Shown: positions 6,905-61,023 of the stretch, in pieces
How positions within the stretch are numbered: position 1 is the stretch's first letter
How the letters are laid out: every line of letters begins with the position of its first letter
Assembly: GCA_963722305.1 (NCBI GenBank)
Contig: CAVRKE010000001.1
Span: 245,549-309,548 of the forward strand
Direction: 5' to 3'
From: Candidatus Levyibacteriota bacterium
Lineage (GTDB): Bacteria > Patescibacteriota > Microgenomatia > Levybacterales > UBA12049
DNA: 64,000 bases
The notes under the pieces: generated by a model
What the model saw: only the letters and a program-made list of their open reading frames with translations
Databases searched by the model: none
What the model was told of the DNA's origin: nothing
Position numbers and translations under genes: made by a program

Positions 6905-7146
6905 AGAAGCGTATTGAAAACGCAAGCCGAAAGGCTAAGTGGTAATCGACTGCCACAACCTACCGCAGAAGGACTGTTCGGATTGAAACAAGCGGTTTCC
7001 CGATCACACCAAACGAACAGATAAGATGCTTTGCAAGACCGTTGAAACGCGTGAGCAAAGATTAACATCAAAAACCTTCTGGTTTATCTCTCTTCTTCTA
7101 AGAAATGAGATGAGTAACAGTAGTAACTAGGGAGAGGAAAAAGAAT

Positions 7147-42466: not shown

Positions 42467-43312
42467 ATGTTTTCTTTTCTTAAAACACGCAGGGGGTTAT
42501 TAATTGTTGGCTTATTGGTAGTTGTTTTAATCGGTCTTCCTGTAACGATTTATTTGGTTGGAAATCCACAACTGCTTCAGCAATTTGCGTGTGTTCCCGA
42601 ACCTAAGGCAACAACTGCTTGTAGCGGCTCCGACGTTATTATTTCGTTTACGTATACAATTTCCGACCTTCCGACAAATGTTAATTCCCAAGTTTCCGTA
42701 ACGGATTCGCAAAACCTAGTGACAGACAGTTTTGCATTCAACTATGGAGCGCCGACATATTCAAAAACAGTCGATACCCACCAATCCGTTATACAAGCTG
42801 GAATTTTAACATTCAATACCGTATCAACTAATGGCTTCAAAAAAACAAATCAGATAGGATACCCTGCGACAGGTCCGTGTGCCGCACCTACCGGTACACC
42901 GACTCCAACTCCTACAGAGGAAGTAACGCTCACTCCTACCCCAACGCTTACTCCTGTTCCGACCTCACCGCCTGCGGCAACGGATACACCGACTCCAACT
43001 CCTACAGAGGAAGTAATTACTACCGATACTCCTACGCCTACATCTGGGCCAACTTCACCGCCTGCGGTAACGGATACACCGACTCCAACTCCCACGGGAG
43101 AAGCAACAACTACGGCGACCCCTACACCGACGTCCGGACCCGGACCAACTTCAACACCTGGGCCAACAGCGACTCCCAATCCTCAACCAACAGTTATCGT
43201 GCAAGGACCAACTGTTGCACCGACCGGACCATCCGGAAATATTATATTTAATGTAGGGATTATGGGAATTATAATTACTGTTATCGGAGGATTACTGCTA
43301 CTTAGTCTGTAA
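42467..43312 (+). CDS. cell-surface protein with Pro/Thr-rich tandem repeats and a C-terminal TM anchor
   Basis: Signal peptide; three imperfect ~90-bp DNA tandem repeats at 42890..43130 encoding TDTPTPTPTEEV...TSPPA; C-terminal hydrophobic helix. Confidence 0.6.
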   Translation: MFSFLKTRRGLLIVGLLVVVLIGLPVTIYLVGNPQLLQQFACVPEPKATTACSGSDVIISFTYTISDLPTNVNSQVSVTDSQNLVTDSFAFNYGAPTYSKTVDTHQSVIQAGILTFNTVSTNGFKKTNQIGYPATGPCAAPTGTPTPTPTEEVTLTPTPTLTPVPTSPPAATDTPTPTPTEEVITTDTPTPTSGPTSPPAVTDTPTPTPTGEATTTATPTPTSGPGPTSTPGPTATPNPQPTVIVQGPTVAPTGPSGNIIFNVGIMGIIITVIGGLLLLSL

Positions 43313-54443: not shown

Positions 54444-54517
54444 GGAGTTGTAGCTCAGTTGGTTAGAGCGTCGCATTGACATTGCGAAGGTCACAGGTTC
54501 GAATCCTGTCAGCTCCA
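54444..54517 (+). tRNA. tRNA-Val(GAC)
   Basis: Acceptor GGAGUUG/CAGCUCC, anticodon stem UCGCA/UGCGA with loop UUGACAU, T-arm ACAGG-UUCGAAU-CCUGU. Confidence 0.85.
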
Positions 54518-54746
54518 CATATTTTACCCTTACGGAGTTTACCTCAAATCAAAGCTAAATTAGTTCCAGACAATACTTTAACGTCTTGTATTTTTAGCCT
54601 CACAGCCATCAAGGAATCGAACTAACATATTTAATACGGAGTTTTGACTATAAAGTTTTAATTAGGTCTATCACTTTTATTATATCAGTCTCCGTTTTTG
54701 TTTTACAGAATTGTAAAAGATTTTAAAATCGCTAAAATTTTAAGAT

Positions 54747-54932
54747 ATGGAAGATACTGATATTGAAGAAGCAAGAGAAATTTTAGGAGATACAGCAAAA
54801 CAATTGACCGACGAGCAGTTAAAAGATATCTGTGTTGAAATACAATTTCTTGTTGAATCATGGCTTGACGAATATGAAAGGTCTGTATTTAATGGCAAAA
54901 CGCTACGAGAATTATTAGGAGAATCTGTATGA
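54747..54932 (+). CDS. small acidic protein upstream of the integrase (possible excisionase or accessory factor)
   Basis: 61 aa; ATGA overlap with the recombinase gene. Confidence 0.35.
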   Translation: MEDTDIEEAREILGDTAKQLTDEQLKDICVEIQFLVESWLDEYERSVFNGKTLRELLGESV

Positions 54933-56371
54933 AAAGCATTCCAAAGCAAGCCTTACTGTACTTAAGGGTATCTACCGAAGAACAAGTTGATAATTTTTCT
55001 TTAAAAACCCAAGAAGACATCTGCCGCAAAGAGGCTGAAAGACGAGGTTATATAATTGAAAAAATATTCAAAGAAGAAGGGAAATCAGCCAAAAATATTA
55101 GCGGCAGGCCTACGCTCGCAAAATTACTTGACTACTGTCGTAAAAATCAAAAAAGGATTGGTGCTTTAATTGTTTACAGGCTAGACCGGCTCTCAAGGCA
55201 AACTGGGGATTATCTTACTATTCGTAATAAACTAAACAATTACGGTATCGCCTTAATTTCAACCGCTGAGCCAACGGGAACATCGCCAACCGAAAAACTA
55301 ATTGAAACAATCCTGGCTGGATTCGCACAACTGGAAAACGATATTCGAGGGGAAAGATCAAGAAATGGAATGCGGACAAGATTCATGTCTGGACTTCCGA
55401 ATGGTGTTCCACCTCCGGGCTATCTAATGCTCAACGGCTATGTTGTAAAAGATATAAATTGTTTCGATAAGGTTAGAAAAGCTTGGGATATCATGGCAAC
55501 AGGAACAAAATGCTTTAAAGAAATGGCGGAAATTCTAAACAACTTTAAATTAAGAAACGGTAAGACCGGTAAACGCTATAAATTTACTCCTAAAAACATC
55601 TATCGTATCTTTAAAAATAAACATTATATGGGAGTTATAGTATCCGAAACGTATCAATTGGAAGTACAAGCCCAACATGTTCCAATGATTACTAAAGAAC
55701 AATTCTTAAAAGTACAAGAAATAATGAACGGGAACAATAAAAATAAGATAGATCTTGTACGAAAAAATCAAAATAATGAAGATTTTCCTTTAAGAAGATT
55801 TATTAAGTGTGTTAAATGCAAACAAGCTTTTACCGGCAGCTGGAGTAGTGGAAGATGCAAAAAATATGCTTATTATCATTGCAATAATAAATGCAAAAAC
55901 GCCAGCGTACCCAGAAATCTGATTCACAGTTATTTCTCTAATCTTCTTAAAGCCAGACCAGCTACGACAGAATACATTGTGTTTTATCTGTTTCTTTTGG
56001 AAAACGTATTTCAAAAGAGATTTAGCAAAATTAAGCAAAAACAGATACGAACAGCATCGCAAATTAGTAAACTTCGAAATTTTCGCCAATCGTTAATAGA
56101 TAAAAACCTTGCGGGCATTTATTCTGATAAAGATTTCAAAGAACAATTTGACCTTATTGAAGACCAATTACGCAATATGGCACTTTTTAGTAACCAAACC
56201 TCGCTGGAACAGTACACAAAAGAAGCTACTAGAGAATATATCAAAAAGAAAATAATCAACCTACCAAATTCATATGAGTCTTTTGATATAAAACAGAAAC
56301 GCACAGCAATATCTCTTTTATTCCCTAAGGGATTTGTCTGGGAATATCCAGGACTTACCGTTGTACCTTAA
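54929..56371 (+). CDS. large serine recombinase (integrase), intact
   Basis: ALLYLRVSTEEQ catalytic Ser, resolvase-domain LDRLSRQ, recombinase domain, zinc ribbon CVKCKQAF...YYHCNNKCKN, C-terminal coiled coil. Confidence 0.85.
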   Translation: MKSIPKQALLYLRVSTEEQVDNFSLKTQEDICRKEAERRGYIIEKIFKEEGKSAKNISGRPTLAKLLDYCRKNQKRIGALIVYRLDRLSRQTGDYLTIRNKLNNYGIALISTAEPTGTSPTEKLIETILAGFAQLENDIRGERSRNGMRTRFMSGLPNGVPPPGYLMLNGYVVKDINCFDKVRKAWDIMATGTKCFKEMAEILNNFKLRNGKTGKRYKFTPKNIYRIFKNKHYMGVIVSETYQLEVQAQHVPMITKEQFLKVQEIMNGNNKNKIDLVRKNQNNEDFPLRRFIKCVKCKQAFTGSWSSGRCKKYAYYHCNNKCKNASVPRNLIHSYFSNLLKARPATTEYIVFYLFLLENVFQKRFSKIKQKQIRTASQISKLRNFRQSLIDKNLAGIYSDKDFKEQFDLIEDQLRNMALFSNQTSLEQYTKEATREYIKKKIINLPNSYESFDIKQKRTAISLLFPKGFVWEYPGLTVVP

Positions 56372-56384
56372 AAGCAACTTTAAA

Positions 56385-56609
56385 CTAATCAAGAATGGGC
56401 AGTCCTTTTAAAAATCTGGCCAAATCATATTCGTAAACAAGAGGTTCTCCTTTATATACTCCAACCGTTTGACCAGAGATCCAACTCAAGAATTCTGCAA
56501 ACTTTTCTGGCTCAAGCACCTCTTTAATGTTACTTATCAGATATCCACTGTATGCATTTTTTACCTTAATTAACTTTAACTTTTGTTTATTTAGTCGTTT
56601 TTTGTTCAT
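56385..56609 (-). CDS. small hypothetical protein overlapping the 3' end of fic
   Basis: 74 aa; 4-nt overlap. Confidence 0.4.
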   Translation of the reverse strand: MNKKRLNKQKLKLIKVKNAYSGYLISNIKEVLEPEKFAEFLSWISGQTVGVYKGEPLVYEYDLARFLKGLPILD

Positions 56610-57640
56610 ATTTCTTTCAAGACATAATAAGTTGCTTTTCCCTTACCTTTTCTTTCAATTAAACCTAGTATGAGTAATTTCTTAAAATCTTGAGTTCTCG
56701 TTGCTTTAGCGCGACTGACAAGCTTTGCATAATCTCGATCCGCAATAAATCCTGTTTCTCGTATGTATTTAATGATTTTCAAGTGTTGTGTTTTTAAATG
56801 AGTTTCCGGACTAACAGCGATTTTAGGCAGTAATTTTTCTACTCTAAGCAATTCATCAATAATTCCCTCCGTAAAATATTCAAGCCAGTTGCTAAAATCT
56901 ATCTTCTCAACAAGTTCATAATAATTACCAAATTCTCCAACTGTTTGAAAGTATTTTGTAACATTTTGGTTATAGTAGTTTTCAAAACTAAAGAGGTTAA
57001 ATGTATTAAGCCCCATCGCAGCCAGTAGCGCTTTCGTAACGAGTCTCGTTGTTCTTCCGTTGCCATCCATAAAGGGGTGGATAATAACCATTTGTTTATG
57101 AAAGATACCAGCCAGAATAAGAGAATCTATCCTATTCTCATTTTCGTTAATAAATTGAACTAAATCTTCCATCATCGATTCCACGTCTTTTACATCCGGT
57201 GGAAGATAAACTGGTTGTCCGATTCTTGGATCATTTACAACTACCGGTTTCCCCCTAAGTTGTCCTGACTCAAATTCTGGCAATAATCCTTCCGTAACCT
57301 GCTTCTGAGTTCCTAAAATTAAATTAAGAGATATTTTTATATTTCCTTTACCAAGTAACTTATCTAAACTTTGTAACGCTTGATTATAATTTAATACTTC
57401 TTTTTCGCTATCCCGTATATGAGTTGGTTTTAACTTAAGAATTTTTTTGACTTCAGTTAGAGGGAGAGGATTACCTTCAATACTTGTTGAAGCGTAAGAA
57501 GAAACCTCACGCGCGGTTCTTTCTAATTCAAGCAAGATTACATTTGGGAATCTCCTGTTATTAAGCTCGTGGACTAGGTAATTTATTCTCTTTATATTTG
57601 CTAAGAGGTTATTAGTAATAGTGTATTTAGGTTTAAACAT
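56606..57640 (-). CDS. Fic-family protein (AMPylator/adenylyltransferase fold)
   Basis: HPFMDGNGRTTRL is the canonical Fic motif. Confidence 0.85.
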   Translation of the reverse strand: MFKPKYTITNNLLANIKRINYLVHELNNRRFPNVILLELERTAREVSSYASTSIEGNPLPLTEVKKILKLKPTHIRDSEKEVLNYNQALQSLDKLLGKGNIKISLNLILGTQKQVTEGLLPEFESGQLRGKPVVVNDPRIGQPVYLPPDVKDVESMMEDLVQFINENENRIDSLILAGIFHKQMVIIHPFMDGNGRTTRLVTKALLAAMGLNTFNLFSFENYYNQNVTKYFQTVGEFGNYYELVEKIDFSNWLEYFTEGIIDELLRVEKLLPKIAVSPETHLKTQHLKIIKYIRETGFIADRDYAKLVSRAKATRTQDFKKLLILGLIERKGKGKATYYVLKEI

Positions 57641-57673
57641 ATAGTCGAATTATAGTCGATTTATAGTCGATTT
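57641..57673. repeat. three tandem 11-bp direct repeats ATAGTCGA(A/T)TT directly abutting the fic start codon
   Basis: Direct reading: ATAGTCGAATT ATAGTCGATTT ATAGTCGATTT. Confidence 0.85.
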
Positions 57674-57857
57674 GCAATAGGGGAACTAAAAATTTCCCAT
57701 CGTAAAGAGTAGGATTAAACACTTAAGTCCTCCTCGCTACTTTCAATTATGACTACTTTTCCGTTATAATAAGTAAAGCCGAGCTGGGTTAGCTTGTGAG
57801 ACATAGTAATCAGGGAATCAAAGATTCTTTTCCACCTAACCACGCTAGGGCCCACAC

Positions 57858-58721
57858 TTATAAAAAACTTAGCCAAATCGCGGAAGCTATCATAATAATT
57901 GTCGCAGAAAAACGCACAAGGTAAACTCTTGTGGAATGTGTTTCCAAAAACCTAGCATATTTTTTAGACAATAAATAAGTGAATACTATTGAAAATGGTA
58001 ATGAAATTATTACACTACTTAAGGCTAGATTATGCCCATAAGCTAAGGTGGAAGTTACAGAGTATATAAAATCTGCCAACCCCAAAAATATAAATGGAAA
58101 TAATTTTTTTAAATTAAGCTTCTCCTGACTATTTTTTATAAATCTCAAGGTTGGTAAAAGAATAATTAAAGTTAAAAAATCCTGCCACAGAATAGTAGTT
58201 GCATAACCGTTTCTGGCCACCGAAATATTTGTAAATAATCCTTTAAATGCCAAAACCAACATACAGACGAGAGCAATAAAAATGTATTTTTGAAAAAAAG
58301 CTCTAAGCTTTAACTTTTCATCATAAGCAGAAAAAATGCTAAAAAAAACAATCACTGCTATTAACAGTATTCCAAGCGCATTAACTTTTTCATGAAGAAT
58401 TACAACTCCTAAAATAACCGCAAATACAGTTCGCAGACTAAATAACGGACTCAATGCTGTAATGTCCATTTTGAAAAGTGAAAGTGTATAGAAAATATAA
58501 AATAAGGCAGAACAAAATGACAACATTAATATTGATATCCAATCTTGCGGCAAGCCTCCACCCTTGATGAGAGCAAAAACTACAATCAGAGGAATTCCGG
58601 AGGCAGTCCAAAGTACATTAAACAACCAAGGATTTTTAATCAAAGACTTACTGGATGCTTTGATGATGAGAGGCTCGATTCCCGAAGTAATGCTGGCAAT
58701 CCAGGCAAATAGTATACCCAT
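57858..58721 (-). CDS. EamA/DMT-family transporter
   Basis: About 10 TM helices in two EamA-like halves; start set at MGILFAW to avoid overlap with the HD gene. Confidence 0.7.
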   Translation of the reverse strand: MGILFAWIASITSGIEPLIIKASSKSLIKNPWLFNVLWTASGIPLIVVFALIKGGGLPQDWISILMLSFCSALFYIFYTLSLFKMDITALSPLFSLRTVFAVILGVVILHEKVNALGILLIAVIVFFSIFSAYDEKLKLRAFFQKYIFIALVCMLVLAFKGLFTNISVARNGYATTILWQDFLTLIILLPTLRFIKNSQEKLNLKKLFPFIFLGLADFIYSVTSTLAYGHNLALSSVIISLPFSIVFTYLLSKKYARFLETHSTRVYLVRFSATIIMIASAIWLSFL

Positions 58722-58760
58722 TAGTTGATTATAACAAATGAATAGTTCTACAATAATAAT

Positions 58761-59330
58761 ATGACAAGGGACGAAGCATACCAAATCCTGACCGGTTTGG
58801 TTAAAAATAAAAACCTGCTTAAGCATCACTTGGCGTGTGAGGCGGCGATGAAAGCCATCTATAAAAAAATCTCGCCAAAACCAACTCCGGAGGAAGAAAC
58901 AGCCTGGGGACTGGTCGGATTGTTACACGATGCGGATTACGAACTATGCAAAAATCATCCGGAAAAACATACCTTGGTTTTGGAGGAAAAAATCGGTTAC
59001 AAACTGGACCCGAAACTAATGTACGCTATTAAATCCCACAACTGGGCGAATAACGGTTTTGAACCAAAAAGCTATTTGGACTGGGCGATTTATTGTTGCG
59101 ACGAATTAACCGGTTTGATTGTGGCGGCGGCGCTGGTTCATCCGGAAAAGAAACTGGCACCACTTACGGTTGAGTTTGTGATGAACAGGTTTAATTCTCC
59201 ATCCTTTGCCAAAGGCGCAAATCGAGCGCAGATTATGCTCTGCGAAAAGGAACTGAGAATTCCGCTAAATGAATTTGTCGGCCTGGTGCTTAACTCGATG
59301 CAAGAAATTGCCCAAAGCCTAGAACTGTAA
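58761..59330 (+). CDS. HD-domain phosphohydrolase
   Basis: H...LVGLLHDADYE HD motif. Confidence 0.75.
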   Translation: MTRDEAYQILTGLVKNKNLLKHHLACEAAMKAIYKKISPKPTPEEETAWGLVGLLHDADYELCKNHPEKHTLVLEEKIGYKLDPKLMYAIKSHNWANNGFEPKSYLDWAIYCCDELTGLIVAAALVHPEKKLAPLTVEFVMNRFNSPSFAKGANRAQIMLCEKELRIPLNEFVGLVLNSMQEIAQSLEL

Positions 59331-59380
59331 ATTGACCATTGACACTACTATAAAACTTAAACTATTCTTTTTATAGGACC

Positions 59381-59605
59381 ATGGAAAGATACGACGAGAC
59401 TAAAGAATCAAGGGCAAAAATTTTCATCAACAATTTTCTTGGCGGAATTGCCTGGGCGTGGGGCGCAATGGTCGGAGTAGCTTTTGTTGTCGCTATTCTG
59501 ACGCTAGTTGTTAAAAACATTAATTTTATTCCGTTTTTCGGTAATTTTGTCGCAGGAGTTATCCAGTTTATCATCCAAAAAAATCCGAATTTATTCGGGA
59601 GATGA
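59381..59605 (+). CDS. small membrane protein
   Basis: 74 aa, two TM helices. Confidence 0.4.
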   Translation: MERYDETKESRAKIFINNFLGGIAWAWGAMVGVAFVVAILTLVVKNINFIPFFGNFVAGVIQFIIQKNPNLFGR

Positions 59606-59636
59606 AATTAAAGCTTGTACCTGATAAAATAACCTC

Positions 59637-61023
59637 ATGGATAAAAATTTAAAAGACCACAAACAATTAGGGCAAGAACTGGAGTTATTTTTTTCTCATG
59701 ATTATGCCCCCGGGACGCCCTTTTGGCTGCCAAAGGGCATGGTAATTTTTAAGGAGCTGGAGAAATATATCCGCGAACTAACCGAAAAAGCCGGCTACGT
59801 TGAAACTTCAACTCCGATAATGGTCAGGTCGCAATTGTTTAAAGAATCCGGGCACTGGGTTAAGTTCGGAGAGCATAACATGTACAATTTACAACTTTGG
59901 GAGGAAGAAGAAGTATTCGATCTTGCGGAAATAATGAAAAAAGAAGAACCCAAGATAATAGATGAAATCAAAAAAAGACCAGAACCAAAATTTCCATTTA
60001 ACTACATAATTGAATATCAAAATCAAAGAACAGAAATTCCCATTTTGAGTTATGAAGAAACAAAAGGCATACAGTTTATGCTACCTGTTAATTACACTTT
60101 AAAGCCGATGAATTGCCCGGAGTCAACCATTCTTTACCGCTTTAGACCCAGAACCTATAAGGAATTACCGCTAAGACTGGCGGAAATCGGCAGGTTACAC
60201 CGCAGGGAAAAATCTGGGGAAGTGAATGGGTTGTTAAGAGTTAGGCAATTAACGATGGATGATGCCCATATTTACGCCCGCGAGAGTCAGATTTTCGACG
60301 AGGTTTCCAACATTTTAGATATGATGGTGACTTTTTATAAAAATTTTCAGTTTGAATATGAATTTAGATTTGCCACCAGACCGGAAACCAGAGCCGGGAC
60401 CGATGAAAATGTGGGACAAAGCCGAAAAAGACTTGGAAGAAGTATTAAAGAAAAAAGGCATCAAAGCCGGCGACAAAAAAGGCGACGGCGCATTTTACGG
60501 CCCAAAAATCGACCTGCACATTAAAGATGCCCTGGGGCGGGAATGGCAGCTGGCCACCGTTCAACTGGATTTTCATATGCCTACTGCTTTTGATCTAAAA
60601 TACGTTAACGAAAAAGGCGAGTTTGAAAAACCGGTCATGATTCACCGGGCAATTTTTGGCAGCTTTGAAAGGTTTATCGCTATTTTAACCGAGCATTTTC
60701 AGGGCGCTTTTCCATTATGGCTGTCGCCGGTACAGATTGCGCTTTTGCCCATAACTGACAAGCAGAATGCATATACAAATGAAGTGGCGGAGAAATTAAG
60801 AGCGGATGGCCTTCGAGTTGAGGTGGATTCCCGTAACGAAAGACTGCAAGCCAAAATTAGAGACGCCACTTTACAAAAAGTCCCATATTTAGGTATAATA
60901 GGCAAACAGGAAGTGGAGTCCAAATCCATTTCTTTAAGGTTAAGAGACGGGAAAGATTTAGGCAAAGCAACAATCGAAAATCTAACCCAAAGGTTAAAAC
61001 AAGAAATTGATAAAAAGATATAA
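59637..61023 (+). CDS. thrS: threonyl-tRNA synthetase, catalytic core plus anticodon-binding domain only, with an apparent frameshift at an A-run near 60405-60410 (ORFs 59637..60524 and 60352..61023)
   Basis: Class II motifs: FWLPKG, RLAEIGRLHRRE, ATRPE then MWDKAEKDLEE in the other frame, GAFYGPKIDLHIKDALGREWQLATVQLDF, HRAIFGSFERFIAIL. Confidence 0.9.

Follow-up and report, generated by a model that had tools for sequence, protein, structure and literature searches.

A candidate mobile element with a large serine integrase and a probably self-repressed Fic gene at the tRNA-Val(GAC) gene of a Candidatus Levyibacteriota bacterium

Introduction

The large serine integrases of phages and integrative conjugative elements (ICEs), such as those of phiC31, Bxb1, TP901-1 and A118, combine three types of domains: (i) Resolvase; (ii) Recombinase; and (iii) zinc ribbon. 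These enzymes recombine two attachment (att) sites of very short identity, attP and attB, to yield attL and attR. Large serine recombinases also excise small cargo elements as non-replicating circles, as is the case of Tn4451 and Tn5397 (by means of TnpX and TndX) and of SCCmec (by means of CcrAB). Here, we describe a segment of about 3.34 kb located next to the tRNA-Val(GAC) gene in a stretch of 64,000 nucleotides (hereafter, the window) of a Candidatus Levyibacteriota bacterium (contig CAVRKE010000001.1), which carries a large serine integrase gene and a gene of the Fic family. Positions are those of the window.

The islands identified by Islander/TIGER are inserted by tyrosine integrases at the 3' end of tRNA genes, leave a displaced copy at the far end, and carry in attP a tRNA fragment which regenerates the gene (PMC4383910). 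Serine integrases were reported in 2015 as not targeting tRNA genes, and a tRNA target is taken to imply a tyrosine integrase in the working rule of island-finding software (PMC4383910). In a limited literature search, no report of serine integrases at tRNA genes was found for the Candidate Phyla Radiation (CPR), and reports later than 2015 are possible. Regarding Fic proteins with a C-terminal helix-turn-helix (HTH) domain, CccR of Y. pseudotuberculosis represses its own promoter via its HTH domain through two inverted 10-bp boxes located 26 bp apart (PMC9755527), and binding of SoFic to the first 100 bp of its own upstream region has been reported (bioRxiv 10.64898/2026.07.09.737422). For the E. 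coli protein, EcSofic, both toxicity and a small antitoxin encoded downstream, AS1, have been described (PMC12249575).

The locus studied here shares with phiC31, Bxb1, TP901-1 and A118 the domain architecture of the integrase, the short att identity and, as predicted, the attP x attB reaction. It differs from them in (i) the tRNA 3'-end target; (ii) the mimic of a tRNA end in attP; (iii) the CPR host; (iv) the vehicle, of 3.3 kb and without phage or conjugation genes; and (v) a coupled upstream partner of 61 amino acids (aa). With the Islander/TIGER islands it has in common the insertion at a tRNA 3' end, the displaced copy at the far end and the tRNA fragment in attP that would regenerate the gene (PMC4383910), whereas the recombinase is of the serine type (the only one of the element) and the identity block spans just 5-11 nt. 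Like Tn4451, Tn5397 and SCCmec, the segment would be a small carrier of cargo excised as a non-replicating circle by a large serine recombinase; unlike them, it lacks a Mob/oriT gene and uses a tRNA gene as target, and its integrase is an equivalog of none of theirs. Finally, the Fic protein shares with SoFic (S. oneidensis, E. coli) and CccR the inhibitory helix, the Fic motif and a C-terminal winged HTH (wHTH), but here three direct repeats in 11-bp phase lie in the core promoter of a putatively leaderless gene which is, moreover, cargo of an integrase element. In general terms, both the integration chemistry and the Fic regulation are of known kinds with unusual features: as read from the sequence, the serine integrase targets a tRNA gene, and the putatively leaderless fic gene has an operator made of direct repeats. 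The joint explanation that best accounts for the data, and which we hold to be quite probable, is that of an element integrated at tRNA-Val by a serine integrase with a self-repressed Fic of the SoFic type as cargo.

Boundaries and mobility of the element

The segment 54520-57856 is, as far as sequences show, a genuine and mobile integrative element of a Patescibacteria host (CPR, Microgenomates-like). Its limits follow from four combined lines of evidence: (i) its foreign composition; (ii) the joined ends found in another sample; (iii) the empty sites of relatives; and (iv) the presence of a related copy in a different species. As for composition, the GC content is 0.34 in the element versus 0.43-0.45 in the flanks, and the GC content at third codon positions (GC3) is 0.27-0.30 for the genes of the element versus 0.43-0.50 for the adjacent core genes.

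The joined ends were found in L002, a Logan contig of 3352 nt from run ERR11596056 which was retrieved by exact look-up of the Fic protein. This contig matches the window from 57805 down to 54515 at 99.3% identity and then runs on into 57856-57790; its termini repeat one 16-mer and, with this 16-nt overlap, it closes into a circular form of 3336 bp. At its junction, ...GCTATGGCCCACA is joined to TATTTTACCC...; in the window, attL consists of ...CAGCTCCACA (the tRNA 3' end) followed by TATTTTACCC (the element), and attR of ...GCTAGGGCCCACA followed by CTTATAAAAAAC. Since L002 joins the right end of the segment to its left end, the junction corresponds to attP, whether it belongs to a 3336-bp circle or to a tandem dimer. 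Two contigs from a third run independently support attL (L001) and attR (L003). Among the 22 differences between L002 and the window, 18 are concentrated in one patch of 220 bp (55095-55312) within the catalytic domain of the integrase, while fic is identical, a pattern which suggests recombination between element variants.

Relatives were retrieved using as query the 189-aa protein encoded to the right of the element (hereafter, HD-like). In three metagenome-assembled genomes of Patescibacteria (L012, L013 and L023), the gene order is trigger factor, DUF5660, tRNA-Val(GAC), HD-like gene, DUF5665 and thrS, with a gap of 1-40 nt between the tRNA and the HD-like gene (L012 has the end of the tRNA at 6999 and the HD-like ATG at 7001; in L013, the gap is 40 nt; L023 is likewise empty). 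As the tRNA adjoins the HD-like gene with neither integrase nor Fic nor EamA-family transporter in between, they represent empty sites. In turn, a JGI contig from a different species (L004) carries at the same tRNA an element that is 92% identical, with flanks only 74-76% identical; there, the element directly adjoins the HD-like ATG and is flanked by an 11-bp direct repeat, CTAGGGCCCAC.

An earlier note on this DNA had proposed that a large serine integrase inserted an element at tRNA-Val(GAC), which is borne out by the contig with the attP junction and by the relatives, some with empty sites and one, of a second species, with the same element. The synteny between tRNA-Val and thrS, for which the note had suggested a comparison among relatives, does differ in gene content, as those three empty sites illustrate. 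On the other hand, the extension of the element up to thrS has to be discarded: the element stops at 57856, just short of the stop codon of the EamA gene, and HD-like, DUF5665 and thrS, the first of which the note had placed in the element, are syntenic core genes located beside tRNA-Val in relatives. Nor does the EamA gene belong to it, as it is not in the circular form. The note had also taken a duplicated tRNA 3' end as the test of mobility, which is poorly suited to a serine integrase: within 54518-59640 there is no long direct repeat of the tRNA-Val 3' end, and CCACA, the only sequence common to attL and attR of the window, amounts to the 5 nt of identity expected of such an enzyme (11 nt in L004).

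Alternatively, the island might be a fixed remnant, that is, an old and immobile insertion whose integrase is decaying or has been domesticated; such a remnant would explain the lack of transfer or replication genes and the occupation of the same site in two species. We consider this improbable, given that the four open reading frames (ORFs) of the element are intact and show a synonymous excess against L004, that an attP-type junction at 99.3% identity was found in an independent sample, that the element is far more similar between species than its core flanks, and that related elements occupy other sites. In any case, the mobile element is the reading preferred here, and its boundaries, the attP junction, the empty sites and the intact genes under purifying selection can be regarded as established at the level of sequence comparison.

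None of the element ORFs matched a transfer gene (conjugation, mobilisation or virion) in Pfam, NCBIfam or PHROG. A scan of IMG/VR with the integrase alignment only retrieved relatives with 28-29% identity, none of them close. The left arm of the element contains a conserved block, GGA(A/G)TCGAAC (approximately 54612-54622), also present in L004, L007 and L008 (the latter two are related elements described below), which resembles the T-loop of a tRNA on the opposite strand; no tRNA is called there by ARAGORN.

The integrase and its tRNA target

The intact large serine integrase and the coupled 61-aa ORF upstream of it, close to tRNA-Val(GAC), are all present in the sequence as the earlier note had described. 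The integrase matches Resolvase (PF00239, E=1.1e-33, residues 9-151), Recombinase (PF07508, E=7e-10) and PHROG 95 (E=1e-74), as well as Zn_ribbon_recom (PF13408) with 24.8 bits, just below the cutoff of 25.3. The nucleophile motif R13-V-S15-T-E-E-Q is invariant in 14 homologues, and the cysteines C294, C297, C318 and C322 are invariant in homologues too. More than 1000 homologues were found, mostly from CPR; the matches in the PDB correspond to the catalytic domain of TP901-1, and the NCBIfam models XisF, CcrB and CcrC only reach scores of 44-91 versus cutoffs of 375-900.

The att core of the window comprises 5 nt, compared with 11 nt in L004, and CCAC is common to both. In the window, the CCACA of attL includes the last two bases of the acceptor stem (GGAGTTG/CAGCTCC, as read from the sequence), the discriminator A and the following 2 nt, and the tRNA gene is still intact after the insertion. 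The right arm of the element ends in CTAGGGCCCACA, and attR can be written as ...CGCTAGGGCCCACA followed by CTTATAAAA, to be compared with the tRNA end of L012, ...TCTTCTAGGGCCCAC. The right arm thus holds an 11-nt copy of a tRNA-Val 3' end, so attP carries a mimic of the tRNA end, as in the islands of tyrosine integrases. From this comparison of sequences, the crossover must fall within CCAC(A), i.e. the final two bases of the acceptor stem, the discriminator and 1-2 bases beyond it; the exact position of catalysis within it can only be placed by inference. According to the mechanism proposed, the integrase would recombine attP (the joined ends of the circle) with an attB formed by the last bases of tRNA-Val(GAC) plus whatever sequence lies downstream, and an exchange within CCAC(A) would leave the tRNA intact.

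A second target was found in GCA_040960095.1 (L008-L010), where a module of 61-aa ORF, integrase (70% identical) and Fic lies directly 3' of tRNA-Lys(CTT). The shared core in L008 is CTCACAAA, and its right arm, GCCGACTCACAAA, resembles the end of tRNA-Lys(CTT), GGCGGCTCACAAA. A further element, L007, encodes an integrase 84% identical to that of the window and has a third flank and an extra PLD-like gene; its left junction is lost at the end of the contig. At 3084-3633 of L007, between the fic promoter and the right end, there are an o53-like ORF (o53 is a small ORF at the right end of the element) and then a gene for a 146-aa PLDc_2 (Nuc-like) protein, whose position would constitute a second cargo slot.

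The promoter block of the integrase operon is conserved in the window, L004, L007 and L008. Both operons of the element (54711-54747 and 57640-57677) lack a Shine-Dalgarno sequence and have 8 nt between the end of the -10 box and the ATG, which suggests leaderless expression of both; this type of expression may be common in this host. The transcription start of the integrase operon is given here as a predicted position.

The pair formed by the 61-aa ORF and a serine integrase also appears with other cargo: (i) copper resistance genes (CsoR, CopA and cupredoxin) in L026 and L107; (ii) TIR, caspase, methylase and HNH genes in L024; and (iii) SIR2, HTH_17 and DUF5677 in L025. L108 is a further locus in which the pair is accompanied by differing cargo. 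Two contigs of a size compatible with a circle and carrying integrase homologues, P0011 (3123 bp) and P0026 (3330 bp), were considered and rejected: they hold other cargo types and are not circles.

The Fic cargo

As the earlier note had pointed out, fic is convergent to the integrase gene, has the canonical motif (HPFMDGNGR, residues 188-196) and is followed by a small overlapping ORF. The protein matches Pfam Fic (E=5e-15) and, over its full length, the SoFic model of PADLOC (E=1.6e-43); the PDB phmmer match to 3eqx/9tc* (E=6e-7) covers 90 residues only. Both the catalytic motif, H188-P-F-M-D-G-N-G-R-T-T-R199, and the inhibitory motif, S51-T-S-I-E55-G56, which lies in the same chain on the N-terminal side of the former, are invariant across homologues. 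A class I arrangement of the FicT/FicA type was discarded, as the 74-aa ORF located downstream of fic lacks the (S/T)xxxE(G/N) motif and this motif sits within Fic. In the AlphaFold2 (AF2) model, the C-terminal domain (CTD) has the topology a-b-a-a-b-b, made up of three helices (284-296, 301-307 and 312-324) and a beta wing (per-residue confidence, pLDDT, 74-87), and it gives a weak match to Pfam HVO_A0114. By these sequence criteria, the protein appears to share the SoFic architecture while forming a separate subfamily.

This family of 344-aa Fic proteins has at least 4985 homologues at E<=1e-30, many of them from Microgenomates. Among 59 metagenome loci with a Fic 46-85% identical, neither this integrase family nor its 61-aa partner is represented; three of the loci (L050, L057 and L079) only have a distant serine recombinase, 22-23% identical. 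In consequence, the element has captured a common stand-alone gene. By analogy with its homologues, Fic, the only sizeable cargo, would be a toxin or an abortive-infection effector, with an anti-phage or toxic activity exerted through AMPylation (PMC12249575; bioRxiv 10.64898/2026.07.09.737422); its target can only be assigned by inference. The enzyme is probably restrained at two levels: (i) by the intramolecular inhibitory helix STSIEG; and (ii) by transcriptional autorepression, in which the winged helix of the CTD would bind the three TCGACTA sites. In the clade of the window only, the 74-aa downstream protein would possibly add a third one.

The putative three-repeat operator of fic

The earlier note had indicated that three 11-bp repeats abut the start of fic, and so they do: the units, TATAGTCGA(A/T)TT, lie at 57640-57673 (TRF period 11, 3.1 copies, score 61), and the last one stops 1 nt short of the ATG. 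These three units account for all the occurrences of the exact 9-mer TATAGTCGA in the 64-kb window. On the fic strand, the arrangement reads TTGCAA, 17 nt, TATAAT, 8 nt and ATG (at 57640), and the TCGACTA units run from the spacer through the -10 box into the start region. As a possible fourth site, TTGACTA at 54644 was considered; it is not conserved in L007 or L008 and was taken as chance.

The array, with three units at 11-bp spacing, precedes fic in 56 of 58 homologous loci from other metagenomes, far beyond what would be expected by chance, and most of these loci have neither the integrase nor the 74-aa ORF. In addition, the operator block is invariant among elements whose surrounding DNA no longer aligns. 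Among the 56 loci with the array, the -10 box keeps at least five of the six bases of TATAAT in 46, the -35 box matches at four or more of six positions in 44, and no more than 3 nt separate the third repeat from the ATG in 41; from this last distance, the fic mRNA is predicted to be essentially leaderless, with the transcription start placed accordingly on paper.

The fourth base of TCGNCTA is A, T or G depending on the locus, and it is usually identical in the three units of each locus. In 52 aligned proteins, the column most tied to this base is that of T316, with a normalised mutual information of 0.73 (the next one has 0.52): T, R, I or V occur with A; A, N or S with T; and K with G. Residue 316 falls within the predicted recognition helix, 312-324, of the CTD model. 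It differs in 23 of 24 closest pairs with discordant operators and in 8 of 25 with concordant ones (Fisher p = 3e-6), these pairs having been greedily chosen and being only approximately independent of phylogeny. The 100-bp promoter fragment of SoFic contains ATGTCGAT/ATCGACAT, as well as ACATGTCGATTGAATCGACAT and TATGTCGAT, all with the ATCGAC core of the fic repeats of the element. The covariation and the shared core lend comparative support to the binding and repression of its own promoter by Fic, in keeping with the autoregulation published for SoFic and CccR.

The repeats are therefore best described, as far as comparison of sequences can tell, as a putative promoter-embedded and autoregulatory operator. 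Of the options raised by the earlier note, autoregulation is the one favoured by the covariation with residue 316 and by the conservation in 56 of 58 fic loci. In this model, the Fic CTD would repress fic by binding three direct sites spaced by one turn of the helix, which together take in the spacer as well as the -10 box and the start site. What seems to be new is the architecture of the operator (three direct sites in the core promoter) and an apparent code of one residue and one base.

It could be argued that the repeats are bound by the 74-aa protein and not by Fic, in a role of repressor or antitoxin-regulator like that known from type II toxin-antitoxin operons. This ORF has every appearance of a real gene and of an optional small partner of Fic: its family includes 24 proteins, it shows 9 synonymous and 3 nonsynonymous differences against L004, and a homologue of 69 aa is encoded in Curtissbacteria, 112 nt downstream of the gene for a 344-aa Fic and with no integrase present, so that the pairing with Fic exists in two separate genomic contexts. 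Furthermore, the top PDB match of its AF2 model (pLDDT 83) is BldC, which binds direct repeats head-to-tail, followed by Bro-N, PrtN and excisionase folds. Nevertheless, all these fold matches are sub-threshold (E >= 1 in PDB, E >= 0.02 in BFVD). The repeats are, besides, invariant in L007, L008 and more than 50 stand-alone fic loci without a homologue of the ORF, and hence the 74-aa protein cannot be their obligate binder; the covariation of the operator base with a Fic residue argues in the same direction. Therefore, the suggestion of the earlier note that this protein binds the repeats is unlikely to hold as a requirement, and as a rival to Fic it deserves little credence. A role as AS1-like antitoxin or as small DNA binder is a candidate function: the position of the 74-aa ORF is analogous to that of AS1 in E. 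coli Sofic, but their sizes are unrelated (AS1 has 47 aa).

A second alternative is that the repeats act on the mRNA by means of translational control, in a structured or protein-bound 5' untranslated region, as the earlier note had also contemplated because of their position. Actually, the last repeat does stop 1 nt before the AUG. However, the best promoter puts the -10 box inside the second repeat and leaves a leader of 2 nt at most, no Shine-Dalgarno sequence is present, the region folds no better than shuffled sequences (z = -0.59), and Rfam has no family in the region except the tRNA itself; we thus regard control at the mRNA level as very unlikely. Weaker still, and hardly credible, is the idea that the repeats serve as replication-origin iterons or as accessory sites of the integrase, which the 11-bp phasing, the three direct copies and the location 185 bp from the right end might evoke, given that scans of the element ORFs with Pfam, NCBIfam and PHROG gave no Rep-like gene, that the array also precedes fic genes with no integrase nearby, and that it coincides exactly with the -35, -10 and start positions.

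The 61-aa partner and o53

The 61-aa ORF is 60-89% identical across eight loci and always lies immediately upstream of the integrase, whatever the cargo. It shows 8 synonymous and 2 nonsynonymous differences against L004, indicative of purifying selection, and no match in any of the family libraries scanned. From these comparisons, it can be considered a conserved and translationally coupled partner of the integrase; that it acts as a recombination directionality factor (RDF) or as a cofactor is a guess.

The o53 ORF runs from attR toward fic, and the mimic of the tRNA end encodes its first residues. Its peptide, RWKRIFDSLI..KLTQLGFTYYNGK..IIE, recurs in every integrase-Fic element and also close to fic in four stand-alone loci (L027, L028, L044 and L048). 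With 6 synonymous and 6 nonsynonymous differences against L004, and a frameshift plus a lost ATG in L002, the coding status of o53 is uncertain.

Significance and points against

A number of points weigh against the joint explanation of a mobile tRNA-Val element with a self-repressed Fic. Regarding the element: (i) the junction of L002 could derive from a tandem integrated dimer instead of a free circle; (ii) there are no replication or transfer genes to account for a passage between cells; (iii) the tRNA targets are limited to two, Val-GAC and Lys-CTT, and the left flank of L007 is cut off; and (iv) more distant relatives of the integrase, which keep the 61-aa partner but carry copper-resistance or defence cargo, have no tRNA within 6 kb, which limits generality. 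Regarding Fic and its operator: (i) the full-length AF2 model is poor (mean pLDDT 53) and confident in the CTD only; (ii) the SoFic equivalog model of NCBIfam, NF046030, gives 55 bits versus a cutoff of 550; (iii) SoFic and CccR are dimers on inverted or mixed repeats, as opposed to the three direct sites found here; and (iv) the independence of the covariation pairs is approximate.

It is a tentative possibility, which we are somewhat inclined to doubt, that these elements make up an undescribed class: CPR elements of about 3.3 kb with an obligate 61-aa partner and a serine integrase which is directed to tRNA 3' ends, a target considered exclusive to tyrosine integrases, and has a mimic of the tRNA end in attP. 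If the proposal were true, related integrases would transport defence and metal-resistance cargo by means of this module. Separately, the operator of three direct repeats in the CPR Fic family, with its code between residue 316 and base 4, would be a new mode of autoregulation of wHTH-Fic enzymes. If serine integrases do specify tRNA 3' ends, the rule used for finding islands (PMC4383910) would be incomplete, and the number of serine-integrase islands at tRNA genes would be underestimated, above all in CPR, whose mobilome has barely been described. The attP of L002 and the attB at the tRNA-Val 3' end, together with such a compact CPR integrase, are a candidate genetic tool for Patescibacteria, a phylum that is otherwise intractable. 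As for Fic, the covariation between operator and recognition helix offers a concrete candidate for a DNA-recognition code in wHTH-Fic enzymes, and a probable binding motif, ATCGAC, is located in the SoFic promoter fragment, which had previously been narrowed to 100 bp only. The element would also represent a minimal case of a toxin or defence gene hitch-hiking on an integrase.

Features of the locus and flanking genes

Table 1. Coordinates of the element, its putative regulatory sites and the adjacent genes in the window.
Feature	Position	Strand	Basis or remarks
tRNA-Val(GAC), integration target, B arm of attB	54444-54518	+	ARAGORN; Rfam RF00005, 76.3 bits
attL core CCACA	54515-54519	+	Comparison of attL, attR and L002 attP junction
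Candidate mobile element, ~3.34 kb	54520-57856		Joined ends of L002, composition, comparison with L004
Promoter-like site of integrase operon, TTGTAA-16-TAAAAT	54711-54738	+	
61-aa acidic ORF	54747-54932	+	Overlaps integrase start by ATGA
Large serine recombinase (integrase), 480 aa	54929-56371	+	Pfam Resolvase, Recombinase, Zn_ribbon_recom; PHROG 95
74-aa ORF	56385-56609	-	Overlaps fic stop by ATGA
Fic, class II AMP-transferase, SoFic architecture, 344 aa	56606-57640	-	Convergent to integrase
Putative operator, three direct TCGACTA units, 11-bp period	57642-57670	-	TAGTCGA on + strand at 57642-48, 57653-59 and 57664-70
Predicted fic promoter, -35 TTGCAA, 17-nt spacer, -10 TATAAT	-35, 57677-57672; -10, 57654-57649	-	
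o53 small ORF, 46 aa if the GTG inside the att core is the start	57715-57855	-	
attR core CCACA	57852-57856	+	
EamA-family transporter, outside the mobile circle	57858-58721	-	Pfam EamA, E=6e-10
189-aa "HD-like" protein, core gene, outside the element	58761-59330	+	

To the right of the element, the earlier note had named a transporter and an HD hydrolase. The first name is supported by the EamA domain, while the second is not: the 189-aa protein has no Pfam or NCBIfam match at E<0.01, and its label comes from an H...HD motif seen by eye. Its gene has a GC3 of 0.50. The EamA gene, with a foreign-like GC3 of 0.285 that is close to the value of the element, is not found between tRNA-Val and the HD-like gene in L004, L012 or L013; judging from its sequence and distribution, it may be a strain-specific and separate acquisition at the same hot spot. 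Another contig, L011 (DATKGY010000025.1, 6500-7010), has an insert of about 330 bp between tRNA-Val(GAC) and the HD-like gene, which contains (i) a GIY-YIG-like fragment; (ii) an extra tRNA-like gene with a 4-nt "anticodon"; and (iii) a displaced fragment of a tRNA 3' end. This insert identifies the junction between tRNA-Val and the HD-like gene as a hot spot for other insertions.

Further downstream, thrS (59637-61023) is split into two overlapping ORFs by an extra G at 60411, and its frame is continuous in L003; the split probably reflects either a mistake in the assembly or a frameshift of this strain in what is an essential gene. The strongest tandem array of the window lies elsewhere, at 42895-43125, with a 90-bp unit in 2.6 copies of 79% identity (TRF score 281).

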